The translations under genes were made by a program, and so were the position numbers. From the IMG/VR virus record IMGVR_UViG_3300022188_000009: a DNA stretch of 64,000 nt. One strand, given 5' to 3'. Origin of the DNA: a virus (taxonomy: Duplodnaviria; Heunggongvirae; Uroviricota; Caudoviricetes). Under the pieces are notes generated by a model. The model worked only from the letters and a program-made list of their open reading frames with translations, made no database searches and had not been told where the DNA came from. Positions 32,086-62,101 of this stretch are shown one piece after another. The number at the start of each line of letters is the position of its first letter. Position 1 is the first letter of the stretch.

Positions 32086-32128
32086 CTTAAAAGTTTCTGA
32101 ATATTTAAAGAGGAGAAGAAAAGAAAAA

Positions 32129-32935
32129 ATGGCTAGAAAAAAAATAGTAACAGTTGAATGGTTTAAAAGTGTAAATAAATTATGTGAATCTTATCAACAA
32201 ACAGGAATGGCTTTTGCTTTCGTAACAAGCCAAAAAGATGGAAATAAAATGTGTCATGAATGGGTAAAATGTAGAGATTTCTTACATGATGGTGTTCGCA
32301 CACAAATCACTGGTATACCATGTGAAATTTATGGATTTAAATTTAATACAAAAACAAATCCAAACATTTATCTTTACAAAATGCGTATGCTTGTAACAAA
32401 ATACAATTTAAAGACCACTGCTGATACAAAATTGTTTAATAAAAAAATAGTATCGGGTCTTAAATTAATTAATCATTTTGAAAAACAAGCTAAAGTTTCT
32501 CTGACTAAAGTACATAAAGTTGATACAAAAGATTCAGGAAAAGAGTCAATATTTATGTTCATAGGTCCAGCTATGTGGGTACATTCACCGTTTTTAGTGT
32601 CTATGTATACGTTCTTAATTCGTCTTGGGGATAAACAGATAAAATTCAAAAACGCCAATAGTCTTAAAAAAGAATTAAAAAGACTGAATACTAAATATAC
32701 AAAAGATGAATTATTAGATAATGATGCTGAATATCTAGGATGCTTGTGGGATAAATTACATATAATTATTAAAAATCGTGCTAAATTATTCACAAAGAAG
32801 AATAAAATGCATGATATTTATAGTGATGACATAAGTATAAATAATTTTCATAATAGATGCGGAATACGCAGTCTGGCAATGGGAACAACCCCAAACAACG
32901 AGCTTAATGAATGTATTAAGGAGATTTGTAAGTAA
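32129..32935 (+). CDS. Member 3 of the paralogous family
   Basis: VTSQKDGNKMCHEWVKCRDF...MWVHSPFLVSMYTFLIRL matches the family motifs. Start at MARKK, with the RBS aagaggag. Confidence 0.5.
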   Translation: MARKKIVTVEWFKSVNKLCESYQQTGMAFAFVTSQKDGNKMCHEWVKCRDFLHDGVRTQITGIPCEIYGFKFNTKTNPNIYLYKMRMLVTKYNLKTTADTKLFNKKIVSGLKLINHFEKQAKVSLTKVHKVDTKDSGKESIFMFIGPAMWVHSPFLVSMYTFLIRLGDKQIKFKNANSLKKELKRLNTKYTKDELLDNDAEYLGCLWDKLHIIIKNRAKLFTKKNKMHDIYSDDISINNFHNRCGIRSLAMGTTPNNELNECIKEICK

Positions 32936-33783
32936 TGACACAAAATGAAACAGTATCTGAAAAAACAGAAAAGAAAAAGTTAATTAGGGTGCATAATCGT
33001 TCTAAAAACGGTACAACTTATAAAGACAATTATAAATACTCATCAATCAACTTCGCATTTGTATCCAATCCAGAAAATGGTAGGAAACAGGCAACTAACT
33101 TAGTGACATGCCGCGAATATGTTAATCGTGTAGCATTAGGAGCAGCTACAGGTACTGGTGATCCTAACCATGACGTAAACAGTGACGCACCAATTGATTT
33201 TGATAGATTACGCCTTCTTATAGTGCATGATCCAGATGGCTGGGAGGAGTTTAGAACTAAACTATTTAATGGTAAAGCCTGTCTTAATTTACTTGAAAAG
33301 GTAAATAAATGGAAACCAAGTACGATTACTACAGTTAAACACGATACATATGACCATGCGTGGTTGTTAACTGGACCAAAAGAGTGGATGAGTCAGCCAC
33401 AACTTCTTTCTTTAGCAACTTGGATATTAAGACTTGCAGCTGTTGAAGGGCCAATCGAAACAACAAATTTTGATGTTTTTGAAGATGATTTGAAAAAACG
33501 CATAAATATTAACAATAGCCATGATTCCGGCCTATATTTAAATAATTTTTGGGACAAACTGTACATTTTGACTAAATATCATGATCAGATTTGGGAAGGT
33601 GTTGATGAAAAGAAAGCCTGGACCGATGTAGATCCTAGCAGTTTTGGTATTTATAGTGGGTTACTGAATTTTGTATCAAAAACTCCTAAATACTCTAATT
33701 GTGTTAGGATTACGCAAAAAAGATTTCTTGGCCTGTGCAAAGAACATTTGCCACGTAAAAAGAAACAGACTAAAGAAGATTAA
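32935..33783 (+). CDS. Member 4 of the paralogous family
   Basis: Carries the motifs LVTCREYV and EWMSQPQLLSLATWILRL. Confidence 0.5.
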   Translation: MTQNETVSEKTEKKKLIRVHNRSKNGTTYKDNYKYSSINFAFVSNPENGRKQATNLVTCREYVNRVALGAATGTGDPNHDVNSDAPIDFDRLRLLIVHDPDGWEEFRTKLFNGKACLNLLEKVNKWKPSTITTVKHDTYDHAWLLTGPKEWMSQPQLLSLATWILRLAAVEGPIETTNFDVFEDDLKKRININNSHDSGLYLNNFWDKLYILTKYHDQIWEGVDEKKAWTDVDPSSFGIYSGLLNFVSKTPKYSNCVRITQKRFLGLCKEHLPRKKKQTKED

Positions 33784-33814
33784 AAATTTATAAATTCAAA
33801 GGGGGAAAAAGGTA

Positions 33815-34738
33815 ATGGAAAAGTGTTTCACAATTGGATGTGATCCTGAATTCTTTCTTCGCGAAAAACAAAGCGGAAAATTAATTTCAGCTATTCCACA
33901 CATTAAAGGTACCAAAACAGAACCACAATTATTGCCAAAGGGAGGTAATATCCAACATGATAATGTTGCTGTAGAAATTGCAACAGATCCAGCAAAATCT
34001 ATGGAAATGTTTATACAAAATATCAAAATGACTTTGTCAGAAGCAGTAAGAACTTTACCTGCAGATACAGAGATTATTGCGATACCTTCAGCGAATTTTG
34101 ATAAAGACCAGCTTGAGCATCCAGAAGCACAGGTATTCGGCTGTGATCCTGATTATGATGCTTGGGAAATTCGTGAAAATGAAAAACCACATGCAGGAGA
34201 TAATACTTTTAGATCTTGTGGTGCCCATATCCATCTTGGTACTGACGGAAAAGATGAAAATTCTTTCCTACTTGATTTTGAAGGTAAGCTGACCACTGTA
34301 AAAATTATGGATTGTGTACATGGAATTATTTCTACTGTACTTGATTCCGGTAAAGAAGCTATCGACCGTCGTAAATTATACGGTAAACCTGGGGCTCATA
34401 GGCCAAAGGAATATGGCGTAGAATATCGAGTATTATCCAATTACTGGTTAAAAAGTCCAGTAACTGTATCAATGATGTACCATTTGTCAAAAGATGTATT
34501 GACTATTGTACGTGAAGGTAAAGCTGAAGAATTAATCAATGCAATGGGTGAAAGTCAGGTAAAGGCTACTATTGAGGACGGTAATGCAGATGATGCCATG
34601 AAGATGATTGAAACAAACCTATTACCCATCCTCAGTGAAGACTCAGTTTATTATTTTAATGAAGTTTTGGCAAAAATTAAAGCAAACGATATGAATTTCC
34701 ACATGGAGTGGGAACTATACAAGGAGGCAGTCGCATGA
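33815..34738 (+). CDS. Carboxylate-amine ligase of the GCS2 / glutamine-synthetase-like (amidoligase) family, copy 1
   Basis: The N-terminal TIGCDPEFFLRE matches the GCS2 lGvEeEfflvd motif. CGAHIHLGT matches the GCS2 HvHvgv motif. RBS aaggtaa. Confidence 0.6.
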   Translation: MEKCFTIGCDPEFFLREKQSGKLISAIPHIKGTKTEPQLLPKGGNIQHDNVAVEIATDPAKSMEMFIQNIKMTLSEAVRTLPADTEIIAIPSANFDKDQLEHPEAQVFGCDPDYDAWEIRENEKPHAGDNTFRSCGAHIHLGTDGKDENSFLLDFEGKLTTVKIMDCVHGIISTVLDSGKEAIDRRKLYGKPGAHRPKEYGVEYRVLSNYWLKSPVTVSMMYHLSKDVLTIVREGKAEELINAMGESQVKATIEDGNADDAMKMIETNLLPILSEDSVYYFNEVLAKIKANDMNFHMEWELYKEAVA

Positions 34739-35502
34739 AAATTGGTATACCGGTTTCTTTCAGTAACACACAGTATTATATTAACCAGGCCTATGTAAAA
34801 TATGTAGCTGATGCTGGCTATGAGCCAGTATTGCTTTCTCCGGAGTCATCAATAAAGACAGCTGTTAGCCTCATTGACGGTCTTATAATGCCCGGAGGTA
34901 TTGATGTTGATCCTATATACTATGGATATGACAACTTTTCATCTTATGCAGTTGACCCGCTAAAGGATGAATTTGAGCGGGAATTGTTTCATTCCGCCCG
35001 TGAAGCTAAATTGCCTATACTTGGTATTTGTCGTGGTTTCCAACTTATTATATATGAGTATATGGAGCACGATAACAACCTAATTGAGTTCATGGAGTTT
35101 AAACCACATATTTCTGGGCATAACCAGGTTGATGGCCAAAGATTACCACGTACTATTTCCCAGCACTTTGTTGATTATAACCCATCTACTCTTTATAATG
35201 CAAGCAGTACCAAAGCAGACTCAATGCCCGTAAATAGTATGCATCATCAATGCTTGGTTGTTGATTTTAAACGCAATGGGATTATCGGAATTCGTAATTT
35301 TCGTATGGGGGCTTGGACTACCCGTGGTATAAAGGTTAAAACAGTAAAAGACAGTAATCCAATGGTATGTGAAGCATTTCGTATAAGTAAATGGGGTGCA
35401 CCGATTTTGGCTGTACAGTGGCATCCTGAAGAAATAAAGGATTACGAGTTACTTCACCAATTCTTTGGTAATGTTAAAGCTGATACTATGGAGACTACGT
35501 AA
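34735..35502 (+). CDS. Class-I glutamine amidotransferase-like protein (peptidase C26 / gamma-glutamyl hydrolase PuuD-like), copy 1
   Basis: MKIGIPV...YVKYVADAGYEPVLL...DGLIMPGGIDVDP...LPILGICRGFQLI...HHQ...WHPE matches the C26 family, with a Cys-His-Glu catalytic triad. RBS aaggagg. Confidence 0.7.
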   Translation: MKIGIPVSFSNTQYYINQAYVKYVADAGYEPVLLSPESSIKTAVSLIDGLIMPGGIDVDPIYYGYDNFSSYAVDPLKDEFERELFHSAREAKLPILGICRGFQLIIYEYMEHDNNLIEFMEFKPHISGHNQVDGQRLPRTISQHFVDYNPSTLYNASSTKADSMPVNSMHHQCLVVDFKRNGIIGIRNFRMGAWTTRGIKVKTVKDSNPMVCEAFRISKWGAPILAVQWHPEEIKDYELLHQFFGNVKADTMETT

Positions 35503-41398: not shown

Positions 41399-42298
41399 AT
41401 GTTCGATTTAGGAACACAAATTGTAGTTTTGGCTAGTAATAAAAGAAAAAATACTGGTTTTAGGAGGGGTAGTATAGGATTCGCCTCAACTTGTTTAAGA
41501 AGTAATACCTTTTACAAATATGGTTTTGTTGCTACAATCAATGAAATATTTTTTAGTAGGTATGGGTTTGAACTTAAAGACAGGGTAGAAAAGAAAACTA
41601 TTATATCTATTTTTCCAATAATTAAATCACCCATGGAAGATACTGAAACTCAAATACTGTCTTTAATTAAACGAATAAATTCACCAAAAAGTACTATCAT
41701 CTGGAATGACATTAATGATTACTTTGGTATGAGCCAAACAACCCCTGTAGCGTTGGCTATTCCATTAAACTATAAAAGAACAAATCTTGCAGATTGCAGT
41801 AATAATGAATTTAAGGCTTGGGTAAACAGTGTTTTTCTGAATTCAAACTTCGTAAGTTGGCTGAACGGGTTAATGGTCACTAACCATTTCGTTAACTCTA
41901 ATATGCTAAATATTAACTGTAAGTCTATTAGAATCATACACCAGATGGTTGTTGATCGAGAATATAGACACTCAAAATTAATTAGTATATGTAAAAACAA
42001 TGATACAAAAAAATCTATTACTGTTGTAATTAAAGCACTTTTGGTTATGTTTGGACGAACTGAGAAAAATAATTTAATTAATTATTTAATAGCTGTTATG
42101 CATAATACAGATATTAATGACAAAAAGTTACTATTCAGATCAATTTTAAATAACATTGTAGTAAGCCTATATTCTCCGTCAGTGTTTGAAGCATTAAAAA
42201 ATAATTTTAAGAAAATAAACCATACTGAGGCATTAAATGTTATTAATACTATTGAAGCCACGAAACATTCTGTTATAACGCTCCATTCTAGTCTTTAG
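41399..42298 (+). CDS. Hypothetical protein
   Basis: RBS tggaggca. Confidence 0.45.
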   Translation: MFDLGTQIVVLASNKRKNTGFRRGSIGFASTCLRSNTFYKYGFVATINEIFFSRYGFELKDRVEKKTIISIFPIIKSPMEDTETQILSLIKRINSPKSTIIWNDINDYFGMSQTTPVALAIPLNYKRTNLADCSNNEFKAWVNSVFLNSNFVSWLNGLMVTNHFVNSNMLNINCKSIRIIHQMVVDREYRHSKLISICKNNDTKKSITVVIKALLVMFGRTEKNNLINYLIAVMHNTDINDKKLLFRSILNNIVVSLYSPSVFEALKNNFKKINHTEALNVINTIEATKHSVITLHSSL

Positions 42299-42350: not shown

Positions 42351-45300
42351 ATGCAGGATACATTCAATTCGAGCAGAGTTCAACACCTAGTTAATACTAT
42401 TTTTACTCAATTTCGCTCAAGAACAGAAACTGAAGGACGGAAGAGCGGTGTAGATTTTGGAATCACACTTGATTTAAATATTGATTCAGATAATATACTT
42501 TGGCTTAAGTTTGCTAAAGGCAATGAATCACACAGTATCACTATACCAATGCCGTTTATAGAAAACAGTATAGAGTTTGTTCAGCAGAATGAAGTTTTAA
42601 GAGCTACTTGCCCATTCTGGTTGGAAGAAGAACAACGTGAGTTGGACTATTTTGGTGCTGTTTCTCAGGTCATACTTGGAACTCCAAGTGGGCTGATATC
42701 TGACGATTTAATCAAAGCTACTCCATATCTACAACGGGTTATATACGGCTTCAAGAATGATAATGCTTCGATAATTATTTATAACTTTCAACAGGCAATT
42801 AACGAAATAGTTCATAAAATGCCTCTACATGAAACAATGATGAATAGTTTCGTAATGAATAACAGACTGATGGTTGTTGACAAAGACTTTGATGAACTTA
42901 CAAGTCCTACACAACGCCTTGAGTATCAGGTAAACAAAGCTAAGAAATATTTCAATATTGGTTGGACATCGATAGGTCTGTCAGACGGGGCACTGGCAGA
43001 TAAGAATTATATCCTTAAGAAAGACTTACGTAATCTATCACCATTCGGTATACGATATCATAATCCTCAACGTAATCTGTATTCCACACTTGGGATGAAA
43101 GGTGATGAGTATTCAATTATTAGTTCACAGACATCCAAAGAACTTGCAGACAAGAATATTACTCGTAAAGGGTGGAATTTATTCTCAGCTTTTGTTGATA
43201 TTCCTGATATCTTTGAAGATCAAATAATGGTTGACAACTCTCACCTTGACAAGTTTGTAACATATGAACGCAGATACCAAGTATTCGGTATACTTCATAT
43301 AAAAGAAAATCAGACAATTAAAACAAATGACATTTTGGGCACTTCACCTGATCAGGAAAATATAATCTTCGATACAGTATGTGACAGTGCTCGTGTTATT
43401 AAAATTGTCGAATCTTCAGTATCAGTTGGTGGAGCTTTAACTAAAGTGTATAATGTTATTGTTTCCTATTGTCGTAACTTTCGTGACGGTGTTAAAATTA
43501 CTAACATGCATGGTAATAAAGGAGTCATTCGGATGGCTGACTTAGGCTATGCCGTTGATCCAAGAACAGGTCAGAAAAGGAAAATTGACGTAATTATTGG
43601 GGCAAAAACTGTTGGCAAAAGACGTAACTATGGACAGATTCTTGAGGCACTCACTAACTGTATTCTGGAAGCAGACGCTTCTTCTAGTACTGTATATATA
43701 GATTCAGAAACAGTTGAAATTCCTAAAGTTAATCCTATAGTTATTGCTGATGATTGGTATCAACCAAATGAGCAGATTGAAGCTGGATTAGAGAAGCGTG
43801 GGTTCAGACGTGATGGTACGTGGGATTGTGATACTTATGCTGGTAAAGTTAAAGCTATATGTGGTAATATTTTCTGGGGAGTAATTAAAACTCCAGAAGA
43901 TCAAGTATGGAAACCCAATGCTACAACTAACCGTAATGGTAAAGGGGTCCGCACAGCAGGCTTAAAGCTGTCTCATATCGAGTTTATGTCAATAGAAACC
44001 CGTTTTGGTGCTAACAGTGCTCTTATGGATGAAATCATGTCATACTCACAAGGCTCAGCAAATTTGCATGATGTATTGAGTATGATGCGTGCTAAAATTG
44101 GTACAGTACCAACCGATAAACCAGTGCTTGATTTACAAAGTATTATACCAGTAAACCAACAGGGTAGTACTATTATACCTGGACAATTCATCGGAGGAAC
44201 TATTGTTGATGAATTCTTTCATCCTGATGGTTTTGTATTTCAACTGCCATTACCTTATATGACTCTTGTTGATAGTGATGGAGAAACATTTGAAGGCTCT
44301 CCTTTATCATTCGACCAGATGACTGTTGCTGAGAAAGCAAAATATAAAAAGCAATTCGTCACTGATAAACTATATATCCCTAATGGGACGCTTAGAAAAT
44401 GTTGGAGGCATGCTACAGGAAAATATGGTTTGAGTGAGATCGGTGTATTAGTTAATAATGTAACAGTTATGGCACGAAGACTTGTAGAAGACCCACAGAA
44501 TGCAATTCACCACAGATTATATTATAGTACGTTATATACATATTTTAATAAGCTGAGTAAAATACTTGGTACAAAACGTGGTGAAATATCAACATATGGT
44601 ATGGGTATCAGATATCCATTTTCTGTTAAAGCTATTGCATGCCTGTCTACAACGCTGCCTAAAAACACAGTAGAAATTCATCGTAGTATGGCAGAAGTAA
44701 TGAAAGTCAAAAATAATGATGTTGTTTTGGCTGAAAGATTTCCATGTTTAGGATTTATGTCCGTACGTCCTCAGAAAGTACGAATTACTGATGATCCTAT
44801 GTGTAAATACGTTATTAGAGTGAGTGGTAATAGTTTAGTAAGTCAGAATCTTGATTTTGATGGCGATGTTCTATTCTTAGCAGCATTTCATACGCCGGCA
44901 GCGAAAACAGAATTACTTCGTGAATGGACAAACCCTGATAAGACGTGTTACAAGTTCATTAAAGAACTCAATGAACGAAAAGGAGCTCCCCATATTAAGG
45001 AGTTCACGTTTAAAGACTTTGATATTAAACCATTTGCAGACATGACTAATGAGGAACATGCAATTATAGTGGAGAAGAACACTGGGGTAAAAGCTCAAAC
45101 TGGCTCAGTTATTGCGTTAACTTATAATATTATGCGTATGGTTGAAAATTCTGATTTAGCTAAAGACCATAAAACGAAAGTTTCTATAGAGATGTTCTTG
45201 GAAAAAGCAGCTCAATCTGTATTCGAACAGAAGCATGGAGGCAGATCTCTTTATGAAATAGTTACCGAAGGTGTGTGTACTTCTGATGTTGAAATGCTAG

Positions 45301-45776
45301 TTGAAGTTGGTTTCAAAAGAGGTGTTACTGAAAAATTATGTACTTTAATTAAAGAACGTGCATCCACTTTAGGTATTTTTGACCTGGTTAAGTTTCATCA
45401 GGACTCGAAAAAGTTTGGAGGTGGCAATATCATAAATAAGGTTATTCGTGAATACCATCATATATATTTTGCAAGTCGTGCTTGCCTTGAAGGTACTGCA
45501 CTGCTTGAGGCATTAGATTATGATGCTGTAGATATTCCAAGTAGAATGTTCAAACGTATAATTGCAGGAAAAAATGAGAAAATACATACAGAGCTGGATA
45601 AAGTATTGAATGAAGCACAAGCTAATCAAATTAATGATAACAAATTGAAGAAAGCTGTTACAGACATATGCGAGATCTTTGATATAGCTATGAGCTGTAA
45701 GTCTATGGGTATACTGCCTAAAACAGGCAGTAAACTACGTGCAGCTCCAAAAACCGTTATAGGTGGAGGTTTCTGA
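42351..45776 (+). CDS. Large (1141 aa) protein similar to the RNA polymerase beta-prime subunit, carrying a double-psi beta-barrel catalytic motif
   Basis: VSQNLDFDGDVLFLAAFH matches the universally conserved NADFDGD metal-binding motif of multisubunit RNAP beta-prime. It is also related to RdRP/YonO-like polymerases. RBS aaagggg. Confidence 0.5.
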   Translation: MQDTFNSSRVQHLVNTIFTQFRSRTETEGRKSGVDFGITLDLNIDSDNILWLKFAKGNESHSITIPMPFIENSIEFVQQNEVLRATCPFWLEEEQRELDYFGAVSQVILGTPSGLISDDLIKATPYLQRVIYGFKNDNASIIIYNFQQAINEIVHKMPLHETMMNSFVMNNRLMVVDKDFDELTSPTQRLEYQVNKAKKYFNIGWTSIGLSDGALADKNYILKKDLRNLSPFGIRYHNPQRNLYSTLGMKGDEYSIISSQTSKELADKNITRKGWNLFSAFVDIPDIFEDQIMVDNSHLDKFVTYERRYQVFGILHIKENQTIKTNDILGTSPDQENIIFDTVCDSARVIKIVESSVSVGGALTKVYNVIVSYCRNFRDGVKITNMHGNKGVIRMADLGYAVDPRTGQKRKIDVIIGAKTVGKRRNYGQILEALTNCILEADASSSTVYIDSETVEIPKVNPIVIADDWYQPNEQIEAGLEKRGFRRDGTWDCDTYAGKVKAICGNIFWGVIKTPEDQVWKPNATTNRNGKGVRTAGLKLSHIEFMSIETRFGANSALMDEIMSYSQGSANLHDVLSMMRAKIGTVPTDKPVLDLQSIIPVNQQGSTIIPGQFIGGTIVDEFFHPDGFVFQLPLPYMTLVDSDGETFEGSPLSFDQMTVAEKAKYKKQFVTDKLYIPNGTLRKCWRHATGKYGLSEIGVLVNNVTVMARRLVEDPQNAIHHRLYYSTLYTYFNKLSKILGTKRGEISTYGMGIRYPFSVKAIACLSTTLPKNTVEIHRSMAEVMKVKNNDVVLAERFPCLGFMSVRPQKVRITDDPMCKYVIRVSGNSLVSQNLDFDGDVLFLAAFHTPAAKTELLREWTNPDKTCYKFIKELNERKGAPHIKEFTFKDFDIKPFADMTNEEHAIIVEKNTGVKAQTGSVIALTYNIMRMVENSDLAKDHKTKVSIEMFLEKAAQSVFEQKHGGRSLYEIVTEGVCTSDVEMLVEVGFKRGVTEKLCTLIKERASTLGIFDLVKFHQDSKKFGGGNIINKVIREYHHIYFASRACLEGTALLEALDYDAVDIPSRMFKRIIAGKNEKIHTELDKVLNEAQANQINDNKLKKAVTDICEIFDIAMSCKSMGILPKTGSKLRAAPKTVIGGGF

Positions 45777-46278
45777 TATGCTAAAAACTATTGAATTTAA
45801 TGATTTTGTAATAAAGGTTGGAGATAAATTTCGAGTCAAAAAAGGATCTTCTACACCAGACGGTTGTCCAACAAATTGTATTGTTAAAGTAGAGTGTATT
45901 ACCAGTGATGGTTTAATAGGATTATATAGTAAACATGCAATTGAAGGTTGGAGTGACCTAAATGGTAGGGTTAATTATGAGCATGGACTTTATGTACAAG
46001 CCAAGTATGTTTATAAAAATCTCGATATAATTAAAACAGAGTTCACCATACAAAAAGCTATAAAACATAAAGGGCATAACCTTCAAGGAATGAAATGTAA
46101 ACTTATTAAATCTTTACGCCACACTCAGCACGTTTTTGTTGAGGTAGATAAAAATATAGGAGCCGGTGGTGCTGACGGTCTAGGAAAACTAGGTCATTGT
46201 ATACTGATTACAAAAGATAATTTATCCAGTATCCCACCGGAAAAAAAGAAATCTAAAAACCAAAAGATATTTAATTGA
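45763..46278 (+). CDS. Hypothetical protein
   Basis: Its start overlaps the stop of the upstream gene. Confidence 0.45.
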   Translation: MEVSDMLKTIEFNDFVIKVGDKFRVKKGSSTPDGCPTNCIVKVECITSDGLIGLYSKHAIEGWSDLNGRVNYEHGLYVQAKYVYKNLDIIKTEFTIQKAIKHKGHNLQGMKCKLIKSLRHTQHVFVEVDKNIGAGGADGLGKLGHCILITKDNLSSIPPEKKKSKNQKIFN

Positions 46279-46335: not shown

Positions 46336-46707
46336 ATGACTGAGAAAAAATGGAAAGGAATTACTAATAATTTTGCCCTGTTTCAGGGAGAGATTATAGC
46401 AGATCCCCAGTTTAACGGGGATTATGGATTTATGACGCTGCGTACAATAATTTTGCAACGTGATGCTAATGGTCAATTTGTTGAGGTTAATCAAGATATT
46501 CCAATAATGATTGAACCCGGATCACCAAATTTGAAAGTAGCTCGTGATTATATCAAGACTGGTCGAAAACTCCAGGCATGGGCACATTATAAATCTTGGG
46601 AAACAGACGGGGTGACACAGCACGCATTCGTTGTACGCAGAATAGATTTGGGTGACAAGCCTTATGAGGGACCACCTTCTGGAAGTACTCCCCCACTGCC
46701 GCAATAA
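46336..46707 (+). CDS. SSB-like OB-fold protein
   Basis: NNFALFQGEIIADPQF...GFMTLRT resembles the SSB N-terminus (N.V.LiGnLgrDPE). The C-terminus has a Pro-rich tail. RBS aaaaggaga. Confidence 0.4.
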   Translation: MTEKKWKGITNNFALFQGEIIADPQFNGDYGFMTLRTIILQRDANGQFVEVNQDIPIMIEPGSPNLKVARDYIKTGRKLQAWAHYKSWETDGVTQHAFVVRRIDLGDKPYEGPPSGSTPPLPQ

Positions 46708-46747: not shown

Positions 46748-47173
46748 ATGGGAAAGAAAATTGCATTAGGACAAAGTACCGAAGCTCCAGCAACTGTAAT
46801 TGCAGCAATACCGCTTTCATTAGAAGAAAAAGTGGTGTTGCTGACAAAACAGGTCGAGGAATTAACTAAAGCATTTCATATTGTGAACAACATTCGTCTT
46901 AAAGATAAAAGACAGCAAGAAATTCATGATGAGCTTGGAGCCAAAAACATTAATATAGACAAAATACCAATTGGTTTAAGTTTGATAGGGATATCAGTAC
47001 TTGAAGGTATTCATATTCTAACTGTAACAGCAGATGGGTATTATATAGGGGAAACAAAATATAATTCACTGTCTGCAGCGGCTGAGGCTGTCAGTCACGT
47101 TAAAATAGATGGCTGGATATATTGGAAACTACCAGATGGGCGTACAGCTAAGGAAGCCTTTAGGAAGGACTAA
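46748..47173 (+). CDS. Hypothetical protein
   Basis: Start at MGKKIAL, with the RBS tgggagga. Confidence 0.45.
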   Translation: MGKKIALGQSTEAPATVIAAIPLSLEEKVVLLTKQVEELTKAFHIVNNIRLKDKRQQEIHDELGAKNINIDKIPIGLSLIGISVLEGIHILTVTADGYYIGETKYNSLSAAAEAVSHVKIDGWIYWKLPDGRTAKEAFRKD

Positions 47174-47700
47174 TGGGTAAAAAATCTAAGAAAAAACGTA
47201 AGAATTATAAATATACTAAAACTGAGTTCGTAGACATAATATGCACTAAATGTGGTCTGTGTCCTGAAGGAACAGATCCTGTGTTCTGTTATAATGACGT
47301 ATATGTCAATAATCATAAAAAGTTCATCAAAGTAATTTTTAAGAATCTTATTGAGGTTAAACGGTGGCTAGTTAATATTGGCCATTCTGACCCTACATTC
47401 TGCCCGGACGAAGATATTGAGTACATATTCAAGATGAGCTTTTGCCAATCAGATTACTGTAAACAAAGACCGCTTGCAAATCATAATTGTGCTTATTTAG
47501 CAGGCTGCATTGGTGCATTTCGTGGACAAATTAAAAACCCAAATAATCAGATTATGTTACTTAATGAGTATCGTAATCGGAAGAAGAAAGAGAAAAAGAA
47601 TAAAAACAGTTATAAGCAGCAACCATGCCCGACTTTCTTTTGTAAGCCTGGTATGGAAGACGAGGTTAAGAAGATTATAAATGGAAATAATATTAAATAA
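47173..47700 (+). CDS. Cys-rich basic protein
   Basis: Many Cys residues. The C-terminus is Lys/Arg-rich. Confidence 0.45.
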   Translation: MGKKSKKKRKNYKYTKTEFVDIICTKCGLCPEGTDPVFCYNDVYVNNHKKFIKVIFKNLIEVKRWLVNIGHSDPTFCPDEDIEYIFKMSFCQSDYCKQRPLANHNCAYLAGCIGAFRGQIKNPNNQIMLLNEYRNRKKKEKKNKNSYKQQPCPTFFCKPGMEDEVKKIINGNNIK

Positions 47701-49084
47701 TAGAATAAGAGTAAAGGACCCCCCTGAAATCATTAAGAACCTTTTAATTGAAAAATTATTAGTGGACAATCCGAAATTTCTAGAAGCAGAAGCATCTGGA
47801 CGTAGTACGTGGGGTATTGATAAAAATATATTAAATTTTGCTACTATGCCTGACGGTAGTTTTTTAGTTCCAAGAGGAATACGTCAGTGGCTAGTAAAAC
47901 AAGCAGAAGAAATACTTGGCCCCAATAATTTCACCATTACGGATGAAAGAACTATATTTGAGTATACTGAAGTAGACTCGTCTAGCATTAAATATAGACC
48001 ATATCAACTTGAAGCGGTGACTAATTTAGTTTCTAGTTCTCCTGAAGGGGTACTGGTTGCTCCTGCCGGCAGTGGTAAAACAGTAATGGGTTTGAGTTTA
48101 ATACCACTTGTGGGACAACCAGCCCTATGGTTAACACATACAGGAACATTAGCTGAACAGGCCAAAGAGAGAGCAGAGGCTTTCCTACCAAATATAGGAG
48201 AAATAGGACTATTCGGTAGAAGTGAGTGGGAGAAGGGCGATCTTCTTACTATAGGCATGATACAAACTCTCATTCGCAATCCAGAAAAGCTTATTAAAAT
48301 GAGGGATGAATGGGGGTTGGTTATACTTGATGAAGCTCATCACTGTTCCTCTAGAACTTTTTTAGAGGTTGTTCAACACTTAAATCCCTATTATATATAT
48401 GGACTAACCGCTACTCCATATAGAAGAGATAAGTTAGAAATGTTGATGTTCCAGACATTAGGGGAAACTAAAACCATAATACCAATTAAAAAGGTAGAGA
48501 AACATGGCGGTATTATAGTTCCAAAAATTCGGTGTAGAGCTGTCATTTCAAAACAAATAGACGGTAATAATATTCAAGAAATATTAAAAGTAATTATTAG
48601 TGACAAGAAAAGAAATAACATGATTGTTAGTGATGTCATTGCAGAAGCCACAGCAGGCCACTTTTGTATAGTAATTAGTGATCGTAGGGCTCATTGTGAA
48701 ACTCTCCATAAGCTAATACAAACTAAGTGGAAAAAGACAGACATTGTTACTGGTAAATATAACCGTAAACATATCAATAGACAAGTTGACAGATACAATA
48801 AAAACGAGATAACCGTATTAGTAGCCACATTTGCTCTTCTTGGTGAAGGGTTTGATGTACCGTTCCTTGATCGTGCTTTTATCGCTATGCCATTTAGGGC
48901 AGAAGCTAAGACAGAGCAATTGATTGGAAGGATACAAAGAGCATATCCTGGAAAAAAGGATGCTATAGTATATGATTATATTGACATAAATATCGGTGTT
49001 TTAGAAAACCAATTTTCAAACAGAAAAAAAGCTTCTAGAAGTAGAGTGTATAATAGACTTGGTGTAGAGATAGAACACTATTAA
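47681..49084 (+). CDS. Superfamily-2 DEAH-box helicase (SNF2/UvsW/type-III-Res-like)
   Basis: Walker A in APAGSGKTVMG. Motif II in LVILDEAHHC. C-terminal helicase motifs in VLVATFALLGEGFDVP and IGRIQRA. Confidence 0.75.
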   Translation: MEIILNNRIRVKDPPEIIKNLLIEKLLVDNPKFLEAEASGRSTWGIDKNILNFATMPDGSFLVPRGIRQWLVKQAEEILGPNNFTITDERTIFEYTEVDSSSIKYRPYQLEAVTNLVSSSPEGVLVAPAGSGKTVMGLSLIPLVGQPALWLTHTGTLAEQAKERAEAFLPNIGEIGLFGRSEWEKGDLLTIGMIQTLIRNPEKLIKMRDEWGLVILDEAHHCSSRTFLEVVQHLNPYYIYGLTATPYRRDKLEMLMFQTLGETKTIIPIKKVEKHGGIIVPKIRCRAVISKQIDGNNIQEILKVIISDKKRNNMIVSDVIAEATAGHFCIVISDRRAHCETLHKLIQTKWKKTDIVTGKYNRKHINRQVDRYNKNEITVLVATFALLGEGFDVPFLDRAFIAMPFRAEAKTEQLIGRIQRAYPGKKDAIVYDYIDINIGVLENQFSNRKKASRSRVYNRLGVEIEHY

Positions 49085-49097: not shown

Positions 49098-50261
49098 ATG
49101 GAACTGAGTATAAAAATTTCTGCTACTATGAATAAGGAATCAGATTGGAACGATTTTTATGAACATCGTATTATCCGATTGCCTGCAGATGCTAGATCAA
49201 AATATAATTTACAGATTGAAGATTTTCTCTATCTGAGGAATAAATTTGGTGGGTATATAACCCTACAGATAGCAGAGGCATTTAAAGAGGATGTTGAAAG
49301 AAATCATCTATGTGGTTACGTAACTGCCACGAATTATGATAAATTATTTATTAAATCCCAAGATACTAATGAAGTCCAACAAGTGAGGGATATAACCCTC
49401 GGCTGTGACCCAGAAGCTTTTTTAGTTGATACTACAACCGGTAACATTATCGCAGCTCATCGATTTATGAAAAAATACGGGGATGTTGGACACGATGGTA
49501 TGTTACTTGAATTCAGACCATTACCATCAACCAGTGAAAATGTAGTTACAGCAAATATTGCAAATTTAATAATGAAAGCAAGAAAAATACTTAATGAGAG
49601 CACTGAGGGGCTTAAATACACGATGGTTGGTGCTTCCTCATGTCACGGCCTAGCTGCAGGTTTTCATCTCCATTACGGGCTTCCTGCAGGCCTTCTTGGA
49701 CGTAGACCAGCTGTGTCTAATATCGCTAAATTAATGACCAAAGCATTTGATTATTATATAGGTATTCCATCTATTATACCTGAAGGAAATGAAGACACCA
49801 GTAGACGAACGATGCAATTTGTTGAATATGGGAAGCCTGGTGGATACCGTTTAGATAATCGTACCTTTGAATATAGATTGCCTGGTGGTATAAATTTGAG
49901 GCATCCTTGTTTAACAAGAGGGCTTATGGCTCTGGGGGCCGTTGTTGTGGAGGACTTAGTTAGTAGGATACATACAAGTACTGATTACTTCTCAAATTTG
50001 AAAGAGGTGGCCACGGATGAGGATTTAAAAACTATTTATCCGAGATTACCTGTTATTGAGACACTTTATTCGGTAATCTGTAATCCTGATATCGGTCCTG
50101 CGAAAGCACATTTTGATGTTATAAAGGAAGATATACGAAAAATGATCGGTTACAGTGAACGTGCAGCATCAGTTGAATCTTATTTTACGTGTTTGGATCA
50201 TGGTATCCAGTATGATTCTAATCTTGAAGCAAATTGGGGAGGTTTTAATGAGAAACAGTAA
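49098..50261 (+). CDS. Carboxylate-amine ligase (GCS2/GS-like amidoligase), copy 2
   Basis: Carries ITLGCDPEAFLVD, and HGLAAGFHLHYG as the HxH motif. RBS gggggg. Confidence 0.55.
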   Translation: MELSIKISATMNKESDWNDFYEHRIIRLPADARSKYNLQIEDFLYLRNKFGGYITLQIAEAFKEDVERNHLCGYVTATNYDKLFIKSQDTNEVQQVRDITLGCDPEAFLVDTTTGNIIAAHRFMKKYGDVGHDGMLLEFRPLPSTSENVVTANIANLIMKARKILNESTEGLKYTMVGASSCHGLAAGFHLHYGLPAGLLGRRPAVSNIAKLMTKAFDYYIGIPSIIPEGNEDTSRRTMQFVEYGKPGGYRLDNRTFEYRLPGGINLRHPCLTRGLMALGAVVVEDLVSRIHTSTDYFSNLKEVATDEDLKTIYPRLPVIETLYSVICNPDIGPAKAHFDVIKEDIRKMIGYSERAASVESYFTCLDHGIQYDSNLEANWGGFNEKQ

Positions 50262-51936
50262 AGACAAGTGGTCGTTTTATAATCTACCATCACGACCAGA
50301 CTTGAATGCTGGAGAAATTATGTATTGGAAGAATACTCTTAAGAAAATTCTAAAGATTGGCTTAGAGTTTGAATATAATCTCCCAGAAAAGAAAAACGGG
50401 TCCTGTAAAGGTGATAGTACTACATGCCCGTGTGTAAATTTAACGCCTGAAAATGACTGTTGGCAACAATGTATTAATACAGAAGCATGCAACTTAATTA
50501 AACCAAATTTAGAGCTGTGTGATAATGTTACAGGTACATGTGAACCAGAAGACTGTAATACATGTGCTCACTTTACTCCGCATTGTAACGGAATATTTTG
50601 CCCTAATTTTGTTAGTTATTGCTTTGCATGCTCTGATTTTCGTAATGATTGTAAAAACTGTAAGTATAAGTATGATCCAAATCGTAATCCAGAAAATATT
50701 CGAAAACATATGATTAATGAATTAAAACCTAACAATACTTACGGTCAGGTTAGCCCAACAGGCGTTCACAGTATAGTAACTGATGGTTCCTTACTTGGTA
50801 AACGTGGGGCAGAAATTATTACTGTTGGTCGACGTGTAGATTATTGGGAATTTTATCGAATGGCTGAAAACATCATCAGTCTATCAACTAAACGTGGTGC
50901 GTACTTAAATGAAAGATGTAGCATCCACATGCACGCCTTAGCCAGTTACTATGGCAAGGTAGTTCCTGGGCAGGAAAAACTCAGTGTTCCAACTCGTGTA
51001 AATGAAATGGAGCGTGATATGCCCGAAATTATTTTAGCAAATTTACACCAGTTAGTTAGGCGTTACCAAAATGCTATGACATGGATGGTAATGGGCCTGT
51101 CAGAACAACACAGAATGACAAGATGGGAAAAATTTAGAGTTAGTGTACTCCCAGTTAGTGCTGTTATGAATCATATGTGTGAAGTACAGCAAAAAGTTGC
51201 CTCTAACGCAGGGGGGAATAAGTATGGATGGATTAATTATAGTAATATTGAATTTTCACCAACTGGCGATGTTAGTAGATTCCATGTAGAGTTTAGAGCA
51301 GCAGACGGTCTTAATTCTCCAAGTGCTGTTGCAGCTATTGCTTGTATGTACTATGCTCTTGTTATTAAAGCAGTAGAGATAAGTCGTTACGGTGTTGTGG
51401 AAATTGGCGGAGATAACTGGACAAAACAAGCAGATACAGTAAAGAAAGTATTACTGAATAATATGAGTTCGTATAATGAAGGTGATCGTTTTGGAGATAC
51501 TTCCAAACTTCACAAATATTATAATATTCTTATTGGTGAGTCGCTTGATTTGGTACGACAGTTGAAATCTATATTGATTAAGATTGGGCCTGCTTTTGAA
51601 GTACTTGAAAAATTGGCAGAACGCCCCTGTGCTTTACGCCTTGTTGATGGCCAAACCTGGGAACGTATTGAAGACGACCTAAAAGTCATCGTTAATAAAG
51701 AAGGTATGTTTGAATTAACTGTTAGTGAGATTATTACACTTAACCAAGTATCTGAGTGTCGTGATATAGATGAATGGGTTGGAGTTATTGGTCAGATTTT
51801 GCGTAATGACCCTGAATTAAATATTGATCCGGATAATGTGGAAGTCGAAGATACTATAAAAAGTTTCGTAATTAAAAAACAAGAAGAGGGTGAGTTGGTG
51901 TGGTCAAAGAACATCGGAGCCCCTATACTTATTTAA
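50248..51936 (+). CDS. GS-like amidoligase (GxExE type) with an approximately 90-aa Cys-rich insertion (about 20 Cys)
   Basis: IGLEFEYNLP matches the GxExE N-terminal strand motif of GS/GCS2-like ligases. ERCSIHMHALAS is the HxH motif. Start at MRNSK, with the RBS ggggagg. Confidence 0.45.
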   Translation: MRNSKDKWSFYNLPSRPDLNAGEIMYWKNTLKKILKIGLEFEYNLPEKKNGSCKGDSTTCPCVNLTPENDCWQQCINTEACNLIKPNLELCDNVTGTCEPEDCNTCAHFTPHCNGIFCPNFVSYCFACSDFRNDCKNCKYKYDPNRNPENIRKHMINELKPNNTYGQVSPTGVHSIVTDGSLLGKRGAEIITVGRRVDYWEFYRMAENIISLSTKRGAYLNERCSIHMHALASYYGKVVPGQEKLSVPTRVNEMERDMPEIILANLHQLVRRYQNAMTWMVMGLSEQHRMTRWEKFRVSVLPVSAVMNHMCEVQQKVASNAGGNKYGWINYSNIEFSPTGDVSRFHVEFRAADGLNSPSAVAAIACMYYALVIKAVEISRYGVVEIGGDNWTKQADTVKKVLLNNMSSYNEGDRFGDTSKLHKYYNILIGESLDLVRQLKSILIKIGPAFEVLEKLAERPCALRLVDGQTWERIEDDLKVIVNKEGMFELTVSEIITLNQVSECRDIDEWVGVIGQILRNDPELNIDPDNVEVEDTIKSFVIKKQEEGELVWSKNIGAPILI

Positions 51937-51945
51937 GAGGTGCTT

Positions 51946-52767
51946 ATGTGTGCTATTTTTGGAGTAGGATTTCAACGAGGTTGTAAAATATGTAATAATG
52001 AGATGGTACGGGAGATTATCCGTAATTTATTTCTTGAAAATATGGTAAGGGGCCGGACAGCTTCTGGCCTCGCCTATGTTTCAGGTAAAGAAATTCAAGT
52101 AATTAAGAAGAATACTGCTGCTTGTGATTTTATTCAGTTACCTGACTATAAAAAATCAAATCTTACATATTTAAAAATGTCGAATTCTGAAGATTCTATA
52201 AATTCAGAACATCGACCTGTTTCGGTACTTGGACATTGCAGATTAAAAACGAAAGGGACAGAACTTAATAATGTCAACAATCACCCAATTATAAGAGATA
52301 ATATAGTTGGAGTGCATAACGGTATGATTAGTAATGATGACTACTTATTTGACCATTATTCAGATAAATTCAAGCGTAACGGAAAAGTCGATAGTGAGAT
52401 TATATTTGCATTAATTGAGCATTATTCTGGCAATAACGGGACAATAGTTGAAGCCATTCAGAAAGCAAATCAAGAGATCTACGGAGGATTTGCCTGTGCC
52501 ATGGTACATAGATTTCAACCATACATTGTGTGGTTATTTAGAAACAGCAATCCATGTTCTATTTTTCATTACAAAGATAGTGGCCTTGTAATCTGGTCAT
52601 CAATGCCACAGTTTATAAGGTCGGCAACAAAAGGATATACTTTAGGGGAACCAGAAGAAATTGAATTTCCTGCAGAGACTGGAATTGCAATTGATCTATA
52701 TCAGAATAAATTTTACAGGTTCAAATTAAAGGACCAAGGAAAAGAAACTAATGCAGGAGTTCACTAA
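51946..52767 (+). CDS. Class-II (Ntn) glutamine amidotransferase, copy 1
   Basis: N-terminal MCAIFG, whose Cys would be exposed after Met removal. Also RGRTASGLA, HCRLKTKG...NNHP and VDSEII. RBS agaggtg. Confidence 0.6.
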   Translation: MCAIFGVGFQRGCKICNNEMVREIIRNLFLENMVRGRTASGLAYVSGKEIQVIKKNTAACDFIQLPDYKKSNLTYLKMSNSEDSINSEHRPVSVLGHCRLKTKGTELNNVNNHPIIRDNIVGVHNGMISNDDYLFDHYSDKFKRNGKVDSEIIFALIEHYSGNNGTIVEAIQKANQEIYGGFACAMVHRFQPYIVWLFRNSNPCSIFHYKDSGLVIWSSMPQFIRSATKGYTLGEPEEIEFPAETGIAIDLYQNKFYRFKLKDQGKETNAGVH

Positions 52768-53734
52768 ATATTTAATGGGGGTTATGGAACAACCAAAGTT
52801 ACTTGAAGAAAAATCCCCATCACCAACTGTTTGTATAGGACAAATGCTTTATGAACCAGGTATGCCTATTCCACTAATGTCACCTGTTATAATTGATACT
52901 AACTATCAAGAAAAATCGAGTTACACCCTTCAAATTAGTGAGTCTAACAGAGTGTTTGTGAAAGTAAAAACATATTTTCCGCCTAATAGTAATTTTAACC
53001 CGATTAATACAATAGTAACAAATGTTAATAAAGTTAGTGTAACAGAGCCCAAACAATTACTTGACAACCATTGTGTTAAAGATATCGATATATTTAAAAA
53101 AGAAAATATAGGTAAGATTGCAGACTATGTTAAGGAACACGGGGTAATCACTTTTAGAATGGAAAACCCCAATACGGCTATAAATTTTATGAGCACCTGT
53201 TTAAAAAGTGTAAAAAGTGATTATAGATATTCCTGTTTCATAAAACGGTTTTGTGTGGGAAATAGACACCCTAGACTTTCATGTATTGATGATACTTTGA
53301 TCTTATTTGTTAGTTTTTTCGACTTGCCTTATGCAATTCCTGTATATAATAAGAAAAAAGCTGATGGTATGGGAGTACGCATCGGCATGTACTGGCCAAA
53401 ATCTACAAAAAAAATGGGTAAGTTGTGTGAGGTTGACTCATTGTACTTTGCAGTATCTATGCACCCTGATAACTTGTTGCACATTGATGGGCAAAAAATA
53501 AATAAACCTGGATTTATTTGTAATGATTATATAGATAATTTCTGTAATACATTGAATAACGAGATTAAACGACGTAAAGATTTACCAAGGCTTATTGAAG
53601 AGGCTAAACAAAATAAGAAAAAAGAAGAAGGAGAACCAAGTAAATTTACAGATGTGTATTTAAGTACAACAAATTTAGGTAGTTCAGCTACTTCTTATAC
53701 GTATACAACTAGTAGTAATACATCAACTTATTAA
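52751..53734 (+). CDS. Hypothetical protein with a Ser/Thr-rich C-terminus
   Basis: Lies between the two class-II GATase genes. Confidence 0.45.
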   Translation: MQEFTKYLMGVMEQPKLLEEKSPSPTVCIGQMLYEPGMPIPLMSPVIIDTNYQEKSSYTLQISESNRVFVKVKTYFPPNSNFNPINTIVTNVNKVSVTEPKQLLDNHCVKDIDIFKKENIGKIADYVKEHGVITFRMENPNTAINFMSTCLKSVKSDYRYSCFIKRFCVGNRHPRLSCIDDTLILFVSFFDLPYAIPVYNKKKADGMGVRIGMYWPKSTKKMGKLCEVDSLYFAVSMHPDNLLHIDGQKINKPGFICNDYIDNFCNTLNNEIKRRKDLPRLIEEAKQNKKKEEGEPSKFTDVYLSTTNLGSSATSYTYTTSSNTSTY

Positions 53735-53756
53735 AATAAAGGTTAGGAGGTAACCC

Positions 53757-55763: not shown

Positions 55764-55776
55764 GAGGATATAGTTT

Positions 55777-57069: not shown

Positions 57070-57090
57070 TAAAAGGATTAAATAAAACAA

Positions 57091-61225: not shown

Positions 61226-62101
61226 ATGACACCCTTCAGACAAAAACCAGCAAAGTGGGACGGTGATAATGAAAATGGTCGTTACAGAGAAAAAGATGGC
61301 TTTAAGTTCGATATAATAACTCAATCAGTAGTTAATGTTGTAGAGAAAATGCCTAAACATTTTTTAGCTGATACTCCTAAAGAAGCTGACGCAATTTATG
61401 CACAATATAAAAACATGCTTAATGGGTGGGCATATGCTTATGCAACATCTACAGGGTTAAGTAGGGCTGATCTATTTGGTGAGGCCTTAATAGGATTAGC
61501 TAGAACTTACCGCGATTGGGATCTGAATCGTGGAGGTAGTTTTCGTACTTATGCTATTTATAAAGTAAAAGACGCTCTTAACGAATTTGTAAGAGGTAAT
61601 TCAGCAACAATTTCAGTGCCTGCATATATTAAGAAAGCAAATGCTAATTTATGTGAAATTAAGTCAATTTGTGAGTCATATCAATTAAATTGGGAAATCC
61701 TTGTAATAGACCAGGATATACCGGATCCATTTGACATGCAGGACGCAATAAGATGTACAAATCTTGTTGAGAATCTAATCAATGCGGCTAAACGAGCAAA
61801 AGTTTCCTATGAGAAGTTTATAGACCGTGTTACTTATATTCCAGAGAACGCTGACTTTTCAGACCAGACAGCCCCTGAAGTTCACGAAAGAGCTCATCAA
61901 CAGATGGAAGCTGCACTAATTGTCGAAAAACTTAAAACACATATGAATGAAGACGAATTGACTATTTGTGACGGTATTATGAAAGATAAATCTTTCGAAC
62001 AAATAGGATCTGAAATGGGAAAAAGCAAATCCTGGATCTCGGGAAAATTAAAGAGATTGAAAGAAAAGATCATAGATAAGATGGAAGATGGTACTCTTTG
62101 A
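61226..62101 (+). CDS. Sigma-70-family sigma factor
   Basis: Region-2-like segment DLFGEALIGLARTYRDWDLNRGGSFRTYAIYKVKDALNEF. C-terminal region-4-like helix-turn-helix SFEQIGSEMGKSKSWISGKLKR. Start at MTPFR, with the RBS agagagg. Confidence 0.6.
   Translation: MTPFRQKPAKWDGDNENGRYREKDGFKFDIITQSVVNVVEKMPKHFLADTPKEADAIYAQYKNMLNGWAYAYATSTGLSRADLFGEALIGLARTYRDWDLNRGGSFRTYAIYKVKDALNEFVRGNSATISVPAYIKKANANLCEIKSICESYQLNWEILVIDQDIPDPFDMQDAIRCTNLVENLINAAKRAKVSYEKFIDRVTYIPENADFSDQTAPEVHERAHQQMEAALIVEKLKTHMNEDELTICDGIMKDKSFEQIGSEMGKSKSWISGKLKRLKEKIIDKMEDGTL

Follow-up and report, generated by a model that had tools for sequence, protein, structure and literature searches.

Cellular-type RNA polymerases (RNAPs) are assemblies of about 400 kDa with five or more subunits, and the presence in a phage genome of one long open reading frame (ORF) with the catalytic motif of the beta-prime chain raises the question as to where the remainder of the enzyme is encoded. 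Such an ORF lies at 42351..45776 (+ strand, ATG to TGA) of a 64,000-nucleotide stretch, here called the window, of the IMG/VR virus record IMGVR_UViG_3300022188_000009 (Caudoviricetes). Its 1141-amino-acid (aa) product reads NLDFDGD at residues 833-839 (nt 44847-44867), and the original prediction, made from the sequence alone, took it for a beta-prime-like chain with no obvious beta-like partner. We find that this product is a fusion of both chains in the order beta then beta-prime. The gene very probably encodes a catalytically complete, single-polypeptide, DNA-dependent RNAP, a reduced beta::beta-prime fusion, whose activity, template, timing and partner we infer from its fold, architecture, catalytic-residue conservation, family distribution and linkage to a sigma factor.

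Two barrel modules in a single polypeptide

The ORF and its motif stood up to closer analysis. Across 49 aligned homologs (48-75% identity) the aspartates D835, D837 and D839 do not vary, and aa 778-855 match the Pfam family RNA_pol_Rpb1_2 at 26.1 bits (cut-off 25.3, E 1.2e-5), which together with a confident structural model bears out the double-psi beta-barrel (DPBB) fold expected around DFDGD. Further upstream, aa 346-490 match RNA_pol_Rpb2_6, the catalytic domain of the beta subunit, at 30.6 bits (cut-off 23.4, E 2.6e-7), and since both Pfam matches exceed their gathering cut-offs the NLDFDGD match is not a chance one. Two PHROG families annotated as RNA polymerase beta subunit match the two barrel regions separately, and aa 362-433 (DGVKITNMHGNKGVIR...KRRNYGQILEA) align to the beta-subunit signature of many solved bacterial RNAPs, with phmmer and with the family profile; DGVKITNMHGNKGVIR itself lies at aa 379-394, inside the same polypeptide as NLDFDGD. 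As the Rpb2_6, PHROG and phmmer/profile matches fall there, the beta partner reported as missing is the N-terminal half of the same protein.

The product of 42351..45776 (+) can thus be described as a single-chain, fused mini RNA polymerase with a beta-type module at about aa 1-600, a beta-prime-type module at about aa 676-1116 and a disordered, non-conserved C-terminal stretch of 25 aa. Its match to the rpoB model TIGR02013 is local (E 2.6e-6) and far under the full-length cut-off of that model. Filtering the six frames of the window for [RK]xPx{20,100}DxDxD returned the polymerase ORF and one trivial poly-Asp stretch, so that no second two-barrel gene was found by this motif, and no other beta- or beta-prime-like ORF was seen in the window, alpha and omega not having been specifically searched for.

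Conservation of the active site

The E. coli rpoB and rpoC sequences were fetched and motifs compared with them directly, conservation being read from the 49-homolog family alignment. Within the beta-type module a fork-like segment (GWTSIGLSDGALADKN, aa 204-219) and a region-D-like segment (HNPQRNLYSTLGMKG, aa 237-251), both within 42960..43103 (+) and with many invariant columns, were assigned by eye against E. coli RpoB 556-571 (GRVCPIETPEGPNIGL) and 673-686 respectively. They are followed by FEDQ (in IFEDQIMV; 43212..43223, +), where the invariant E289 and D290 correspond to E. coli beta E813/D814 (NFEDSILV) and to Rpb2 E836/D837, residues whose role as metal-B ligands is taken from section 9 of Ruprich-Robert and Thuriaux (PMC2919709). 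The beta-type DPBB core (DGVKITNMHGNKGVIR and KRRNYGQ; 43485..43637, +) was delimited by phmmer and hmmsearch alignments to bacterial beta chains and by its invariant columns; K382 and K390, equivalent to E. coli beta K1065 and K1073, and the funnel arginine R424, equivalent to R1106, are all invariant.

The beta-prime-type module opens with a lid-like loop and a helical hairpin (helices 696-713 and 718-739; 44376..44570, +), read from the DSSP assignment of the model and from a pattern likeness to E. coli beta-prime 240-310. From its position in the model just before switch 2, the hairpin (aa 696-739) would sit where the clamp helices of beta-prime are expected, the two showing no significant alignment. 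Switch 2, or region C (GTKRGEISTYGMGIRYPFSVKAI; 44568..44636, +), is the counterpart of E. coli beta-prime 332-354, its family-invariant K742, G744, R754 and S758 being equivalent to K334, G336, R346 and S350; in hmmsearch positions 716-765 of the family profile align to RpoC 325-374 weakly (single-sequence E 0.23) and collinearly. The beta-prime-type DPBB (44733..44867, +), recognised by Pfam Rpb1_2 and by invariant columns, comprises ERFPC, in which R796 and P798 are E. coli beta-prime R425 and P427, and NLDFDGD, which is NADFDGD in E. coli. Beyond it lies a putative bridge helix (TGVKAQTGSVIALTYNIMRMV; 45048..45146, +; conservation 0.81), a 33-residue helix at aa 900-932 by DSSP that resembles E. 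coli beta-prime 777-801. In the model this is followed by a helix-loop-helix (940-976) with an invariant FEQKHGG, a shortened trigger-loop-like element (AAQSVFEQKHGG; 45207..45242, +) eight residues shorter than that of E. coli, in which F958, Q960, K961, H962 and G963 are invariant and H962 corresponds to E. coli H936.

Eight residues have been described as invariant in every two-barrel RNAP, namely those of DxDxD, the metal-B aspartate, two lysines, and an arginine and a proline upstream of DxDxD (PMC2919709, section 9), and all eight (D835, D837, D839, D290, K382, K390, R796 and P798) are invariant in the 49 homologs. The same paper gives as markers of DNA-dependent enzymes the glutamate before the metal-B aspartate (Rpb2-E836), the switch-2 lysine (Rpb1-K332) and the funnel arginine (Rpb2-R1020). 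The corresponding E289, K742 and R424 are present and invariant, the switch-2 assignment resting on the weak alignment to E. coli (E 0.23). The barrels have a regional conservation of 0.79-0.83, the bridge helix one of 0.81 and fork plus region D one of 0.80, whereas the C-terminal tail is at 0.16, and because conservation peaks on catalytic elements this pattern argues for an active enzyme under purifying selection. The active site would lie between the two DPBBs of the one chain, the beta-type barrel supplying K382, K390, E289/D290 and R424 and the beta-prime-type barrel R796, P798, N833 and the Mg-binding D835/D837/D839, while switch 2, the bridge helix and the short trigger loop with H962 would complete nucleotide addition. 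Fusion of the two chains would make the alpha-dimer assembly platform needless.

Predicted structure and placement among two-barrel polymerases

AlphaFold2, run with the 49-sequence alignment, gave a model with a mean predicted local distance difference test score (pLDDT) of 88.1 and a predicted template-modelling score (pTM) of 0.85, disorder being confined to the last 25 residues. Two DPBB domains making one active site place the protein in the two-barrel superfamily, and the recognition of both barrels by cellular beta and beta-prime profiles places it in the multisubunit clade (clade 1 of Chaban et al. 2024). Scores are lower for single-chain enzymes that belong to the other clade (P74 gp62 12.8, QDE-1 11.5, P23-45 gp96 11.0, crAss phi14:2 gp66 8.9), and Foldseek against PDB is in agreement with that structural ranking. 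No close described viral protein was found in the viral structure library BFVD, where the best full-length matches, a P23-45-gp96-like 'minor tail protein' and a 798-aa uncharacterized protein of Acinetobacter phage ME3, show about 10% identity and TM scores of 0.36-0.49.

The suggestion in the original prediction of a non-canonical phage RNAP holds in so far as the product is a two-barrel enzyme, in fused form; the YonO/crAss-like and phiKZ-like forms that it put forward do not fit. YonO of SPbeta, QDE-1, gp66 of the crAss-like phi14:2 and P23-45 gp64/gp96 are also single-polypeptide two-barrel enzymes with the same barrel order, and several enzymes of this type are phage-encoded and of similar size. 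Membership of the YonO/RdRP-like clade would however imply best similarity to QDE-1/YonO and no equivalent of Rpb2-E836, and the present family has neither property; that it is a YonO-like, QDE-1-like or crAss-like single-subunit polymerase of the RNA-interference-type clade is very unlikely. In the non-virion RNAPs (nvRNAPs) of phiKZ and AR9, beta and beta-prime are each divided over at least two polypeptides, giving 4-5 polypeptides together with a non-sigma specificity subunit, in phages without a sigma gene, whereas here there is one fused chain with a sigma factor encoded on the same contig. Neither is this a canonical bacterial core, which has separate full-length beta and beta-prime together with alpha and omega. 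Compared with cellular RpoB/RpoC and Rpb2/Rpb1 (two chains with about 2750 aa between them, plus alpha2 and omega), the single phage chain of 1141 aa is without most lobes, the protrusion extensions, the flap tip and the beta-prime N-terminal zipper, Zn domain and jaw, and outside the barrels its sequence likeness is at or under the detection limit.

The closest known architecture is that of the pGKL2 killer-plasmid ORF6 and its giant-virus homologs (profile 'ORF6_Kl_lactis'), a chain of about 980 aa within the multisubunit clade that also runs from beta to beta-prime; what is shared is the architecture only. ORF6 is encoded by eukaryotic plasmids and viruses and is reported to lack homology to the trigger loop, switch 1, switch 5, rudder and lid, whereas the phage family has a trigger-loop-like QKHGG, a distinction drawn from the published description of ORF6. 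The mReC enzymes of Weinheimer & Aylward (2020) likewise come from metagenomic Caudovirales contigs, some of more than 200 kb, and are deep-branching multisubunit-type phage RNAPs. They have separate beta (1017-1364 aa; 335-403 bits to COG0085) and beta-prime (903-1005 aa) genes, readily alignable to cellular subunits and scoring strongly with COG0085/COG0086, whereas members of the present family are fused proteins of half the size, have diverged much further and are matched by cellular models only locally. Identity with mReC was considered and rejected, as the supplement of that study has separate, much bigger beta and beta-prime genes and the contigs checked are absent from it.

In full-text literature searches and in the key papers we found no fused beta::beta-prime enzyme of this type described for any phage. 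The jumbo-phage RNAPs treated by Iyer et al. 2021 (PMC7824862) are YonO-like single-chain and phiKZ-type split enzymes only, and the tables of Chaban et al. 2024 show as fused derivative the profile of killer-plasmid ORF6. There is some chance, though not a large one, that the present family is already among the 23 families of that study. YonO, crAss gp66, P23-45 gp64/gp96 and the phiKZ/AR9 nvRNAPs each changed ideas on the minimal transcription machine and its evolution. The present enzyme would add to these a single chain of about 130 kDa in the cellular-type and not the RNAi-type clade, with switch 2, bridge helix and trigger loop apparently retained, and it may offer a tractable minimal model of the universal active site and possibly a compact transcription tool.

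Family distribution and split relatives

A word-indexed search of 5.8 billion proteins returned 374 matches, giving a family of about 370 proteins of 1050-1240 aa on contigs of up to 330 kb; among the best 120 of the 374 matches, lengths are 1057-1244 aa, identities 48-98% and all source names 'hypothetical protein'. In an exhaustive search of 1.84 billion 50%-cluster representatives we obtained 106 matches, about 30 of them full-length clusters, with identity down to 36%; neither a cellular RNAP above threshold nor an ORF6-like protein was found there. The gene had no match in 50,697 GenBank phage records (megablast, tblastn), and the few NCBI records are proteins of metagenome-assembled genomes (MAGs) assigned wrongly, e.g. 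to a Thermococci archaeon or a Patescibacteria group bacterium. Across 185,579 prokaryotic species with one genome each, the only carriers were six MAG contigs of 16-43 kb attributed to unrelated phyla, with no isolate; these contigs are mis-binned. In IMG/VR the family has 13 loci, the viral contigs being 45-298 kb long.

In the window every gene is on one strand, GC is about 33%, and the polymerase gene has neighbours of the kind usual in large phages (Rnl1 RNA ligase, CCA-adding enzyme, phiEco32-type COOH-NH2 ligases, amidotransferases, GNAT, HNH endonuclease, YcaO and radical-SAM proteins). On the grounds of this gene context and of IMG/VR membership the source is probably an uncultivated large phage, represented here by a window without structural genes.

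Three distant matches cover half of the family profile each: P0195 (537 aa, with DFDGD) covers positions 521-1050, and P0205 and P0219 (506 and 544 aa) cover 222-498. On one contig (L020, 1-2356) the gene upstream of P0195 corresponds to profile 270-498 and overlaps it by 14 nt, and on another (L021, 281-2169) P0205 is followed by an overlapping gene corresponding to profile 524-620. The two split systems are only 33% and 28% identical to one another and yet have an identical break point, which indicates that the split is real and old rather than a sequencing frameshift. The mini-polymerase exists in fused and two-subunit forms, and a split sister lineage with one conserved break supports the view of the fused protein as a modular beta + beta-prime enzyme; by motif assignment the break tentatively lies upstream of the canonical beta C-terminus. 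The family is in this respect a natural case of beta/beta-prime fusion and fission with both forms existing. A further distant fused relative, P0225 (2278 aa; L019, 8001-14837), has the beta-type and then the beta-prime-type barrels; it is encoded next to AAA ATPases and a TraG/type IV secretion system coupling protein, so that a conjugative element may here carry a giant fused polymerase.

A sigma factor inherited with the polymerase

About 15 kb downstream of the polymerase gene, at 61226..62101 (+), lies a gene for a 291-aa sigma-70-family factor with regions 2-4, as had been predicted. Its product matches Pfam Sigma70_r2 at 31.4 bits (cut-off 24, E 1.6e-7), NCBIfam TIGR02937 at 56 bits (cut-off 42.9; aa 54-285) and phrog_351 (E 3e-17), and its regions 2.2-2.4 align to RpoS/SigA, with DLFGEALIGLARTYRDWD as the core-binding region 2.2. 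The sigma family, with 105 matches, nearly all of about 291 aa, is as restricted as the polymerase family, and the longest contigs of ten sigma matches equal in size those of polymerase-family members. Both genes occur on JAUPWX010080193.1 (312,947 bp), where P0278 (sigma) and P0008 (RNAP) lie on one strand about 15 kb apart and the order RuvB-like protein, sigma, CCA-adding enzyme is that of the window, in a relative at 55% sigma identity. In IMG/VR the sigma gene is found on the contigs of the polymerase loci L007, L008 and L011, with sigma identity down to 31%. The sigma factor is thus co-inherited with the polymerase on the contigs examined (the window, JAUPWX010080193.1, L007, L008 and L011). 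This contradicts the published rule by which RNAP-encoding large phages have no sigma factor and sigma-encoding ones no RNAP, and it raises the question as to whether sigma can work with so reduced a polymerase.

The gene preceding sigma (60229-61215) encodes a RuvB-like AAA+ ATPase with RuvB_N, lid and C-terminal winged-helix domains, and its 3' end overlaps the longest sigma ORF. Around the polymerase gene sigma-70-type promoters and intrinsic terminators are not enriched, and the only enriched intergenic k-mers are -10-like TAGTATAAT boxes concentrated in the non-coding stretch 484-1863. This region of about 1.4 kb is dense in repeats, with GGTATCGGTATGCTA units that resemble iterons, AAACCAGTATATCGATA in three copies and about twelve -10-like boxes (TAGTATAAT / TAATATAAT), and could serve, near the left end, as a cluster of early promoters or as an origin of replication.

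Neighbouring genes

We compared the polymerase neighbourhood over 15 loci with polymerase identities of 35-66%. An SF2 helicase, a Cys-rich protein of about 560 aa and ligase and amidotransferase genes lie near the polymerase in all 15. The three flanking ORFs named in the original prediction (40560, 41399 and 45763) exist, the last more likely starting at ATG 45778. Directly upstream of the polymerase, the 299-aa ORF at 41399..42298 (+) is a candidate accessory factor; its family lies 10-234 nt upstream of the polymerase in 11 of the 15 loci, with 19-29% identity where the polymerase has 42-66%. A second candidate is the ORF of about 166 aa at 45778..46278 (+), whose ATG lies 1 nt past the polymerase stop with a GGAGG inside the 3' end of the polymerase gene, an arrangement from which translational coupling is predicted. 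Its product has a conserved C-terminal motif (VEFDExIGGGSxDGxGxxGHC), and in the distant loci L014-L016 a domain of this type is found within proteins of 335-478 aa encoded 650-875 nt upstream of the polymerase.

For the flanking families, at 19-47% identity against 42-66% for the polymerase, nothing matched in Pfam, PHROGs, NCBIfam or PDB sequences, also when the 41399 and 45763 families were compared as profiles with PDB and Pfam, and the flanking ORFs show no likeness to beta or beta-prime segments and no paralogy among themselves. We regard them as candidate accessory or specificity factors and nothing more. In one relative at 51% identity (L002), a TnpB / IS605 OrfB (Cas12f-like) gene at 5662-6726 (-) is inserted on the opposite strand upstream of the polymerase gene, in a block that is collinear apart from it.

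Downstream, a 123-aa protein with a Pro-rich tail (46336..46707, +) is encoded 0-2 kb from the polymerase in 11 of the 15 loci. It has no match in the Pfam, PHROG and NCBIfam libraries and by eye resembles an oligonucleotide/oligosaccharide-binding (OB) fold of the single-stranded DNA-binding protein (SSB) type. Between this block and the helicase, 47173-47700 encodes a 175-aa Cys-rich, zinc-ribbon-like protein with lysine-rich termini that is conserved in nine loci. The helicase itself (47681..49084, +) is of the XPB/Rad25/RadD type (Pfam ResIII/DEAD/Helicase_C; NCBIfam XPB, E 1.3e-21). A Rad25-like helicase has been linked to phiKZ-type RNAP genes (PMC7824862), yet the family of the present one, phrog_16, is generic among phages, with members in more than 1000 GenBank phages at identities of up to 30%, which leaves the link to the polymerase suggestive only and weakens the helicase as a polymerase-specific partner.

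The protein of about 560 aa (50155-51936) was rejected as a polymerase partner; it is Cys-rich, has no family match in Pfam, PHROG or NCBIfam, is flanked by COOH-NH2 ligase and amidotransferase genes and would seem to belong to a peptide-modification module. At 32000-35500 and 49098-59511 the window has peptide-ligase and amidotransferase genes in unusually high number, which encode at least three phiEco32-type COOH-NH2 ligases, several class I/II glutamine amidotransferases and a GNAT protein, and the set, which also holds a RimK-like ATP-grasp protein (S6 glutaminyl-transferase PHROG) and the protein of about 560 aa, is collinear throughout the phage clade.

Possible roles of the polymerase

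Most likely the enzyme would be a non-virion polymerase, produced after infection, that transcribes a portion of the phage genome without need of the host's catalytic core. Because the clamp N-terminus is largely missing from the chain and nothing in it is recognisable as a reader of DNA sequence, a partner is expected to be needed for promoters; the candidates for such a specificity factor are sigma and the products of 41399 and 45778. Several observations weigh against this interpretation. Detectable similarity to known RNAPs consists of the two barrels and the weak switch-2 match only, E-values of the profile against PDB are about 3e-5 (beta) and 0.03 (beta-prime), and the hhalign signal between the family profile and single E. 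coli sequences was too weak for domain mapping. The fork, the lid and clamp helices (676-740), the flap (300-376), the bridge helix and the trigger loop are putative assignments from secondary structure in the model and from by-eye patterns of E. coli; the flap of known enzymes is a domain of SBHM (sandwich-barrel hybrid motif) type, placed as an insert within the beta barrel (Iyer et al. 2021). Intergenic k-mers of the window contain no enriched promoter motif for a phage-specific polymerase. In addition the gene sits among replication/recombination-type genes, with the SSB-like protein, the SF2 'DNA helicase' (phrog_16) and the RuvB-like ATPase, a setting which would also suit a main role in making RNA primers for phage DNA replication, or some other specialised RNA.

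That last role also draws on the absence of a DnaG-type or archaeo-eukaryotic-type primase among the window proteins scanned, on the proposal of priming by Iyer et al. 2021 for phiKZ-type phages without a primase (PMC7824862), and on the consideration that a phage sigma factor could suffice to run host RNAP on phage promoters. The window is however part of a genome of about 300 kb, the remainder of which may encode a primase, the phage two-barrel RNAPs that have been characterised are all transcriptases (PMC7598289, PMC10770324), and a retained switch 2, bridge helix and trigger loop would fit processive transcription, so that we consider priming quite improbable as the main function. A reading which overlaps with that of a complete single-chain enzyme, and which we hold to be possible but doubtful, is that the protein is only the catalytic core of a multi-protein phage polymerase whose remaining parts come from neighbouring ORFs, as in phiKZ/AR9, where the nvRNAPs need a fifth, non-homologous specificity subunit (PMC7598289). 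Consistent with this, the chain is without approximately the first 235 residues of bacterial beta-prime and most beta lobes, a sister lineage is truly split into two genes, ORF 41399 is directly upstream in 11 of the 15 loci, and ORF 45778 is apparently coupled to the polymerase, its domain staying beside it despite rearrangement in distant lineages. Adjacency is nevertheless weak evidence because the whole region is collinear across the clade; moreover the flanking ORFs have no similarity to beta/beta-prime segments, PDB sequences or Pfam, and their families were not detected in the most distant loci L014-L017 except for the relocated 45763 domain.

For the complete fused enzyme, the role of sigma is the other point on which readings diverge. 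Known phage sigma factors, e.g. T4 gp55 and SPO1 gp28, redirect host RNAP, and we lean slightly towards the view that this sigma has no part in the work of the phage polymerase and likewise redirects the host core to middle or late promoters, the phage enzyme using another specificity factor. Redirection of the host is the rule for phage sigma factors, the canonical core-binding region 2.2 (DLFGEALIGLARTYRDWD) that aligns to RpoS/SigA is kept, the sigma gene is 15 kb from the polymerase gene and not beside it, known jumbo-phage RNAPs use non-sigma factors, and the all-beta segment 300-376 of the model shows no evident flap-tip helix. Set against this is the co-inheritance of the two genes, and it is conceivable, though unlikely, that they form a two-protein bacterial-type transcription system of about 165 kDa, in which the fused mini-polymerase uses sigma as its own initiation factor, docking on the hairpin 696-739 and the flap-like domain. 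If true, no smaller sigma-dependent RNAP would be known, and among phage two-barrel RNAPs it would be the first that works with a sigma factor.

Other features of the window

A number of further genes concern RNA and peptide modification. A tRNA-Gln(TTG) at 3037-3111, a T4 Rnl1-type RNA ligase at 30859-32085 and a CCA-adding/poly(A) polymerase with an HD domain at 62485-63927 look like a toolkit for tRNA repair or maintenance. The YcaO cyclodehydratase-family protein at 17679-19043 (Pfam E 6e-48) suggests a function in peptide backbone modification or one similar to that of ribosomally synthesized and post-translationally modified peptides (RiPPs). The 370-aa product of 8282-9394 has an HNH endonuclease domain at its C-terminus and may be a homing endonuclease. 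A close link to a cultured phage was seen only for the product of 3678-4727, which matches phrog_24834 (E 1e-111) and shares 51.5% identity with a protein of Bacteroides phage Versailles annotated as 'radical SAM domain-containing protein', a weak hint at a Bacteroidota host. At the left end, positions 1-135 hold about eight perfect tandem copies of a 15-nt unit (TAGTGTGATCACTTG) containing the palindrome TGATCA, which may mark a genome terminus, a contig end or an assembly artefact.

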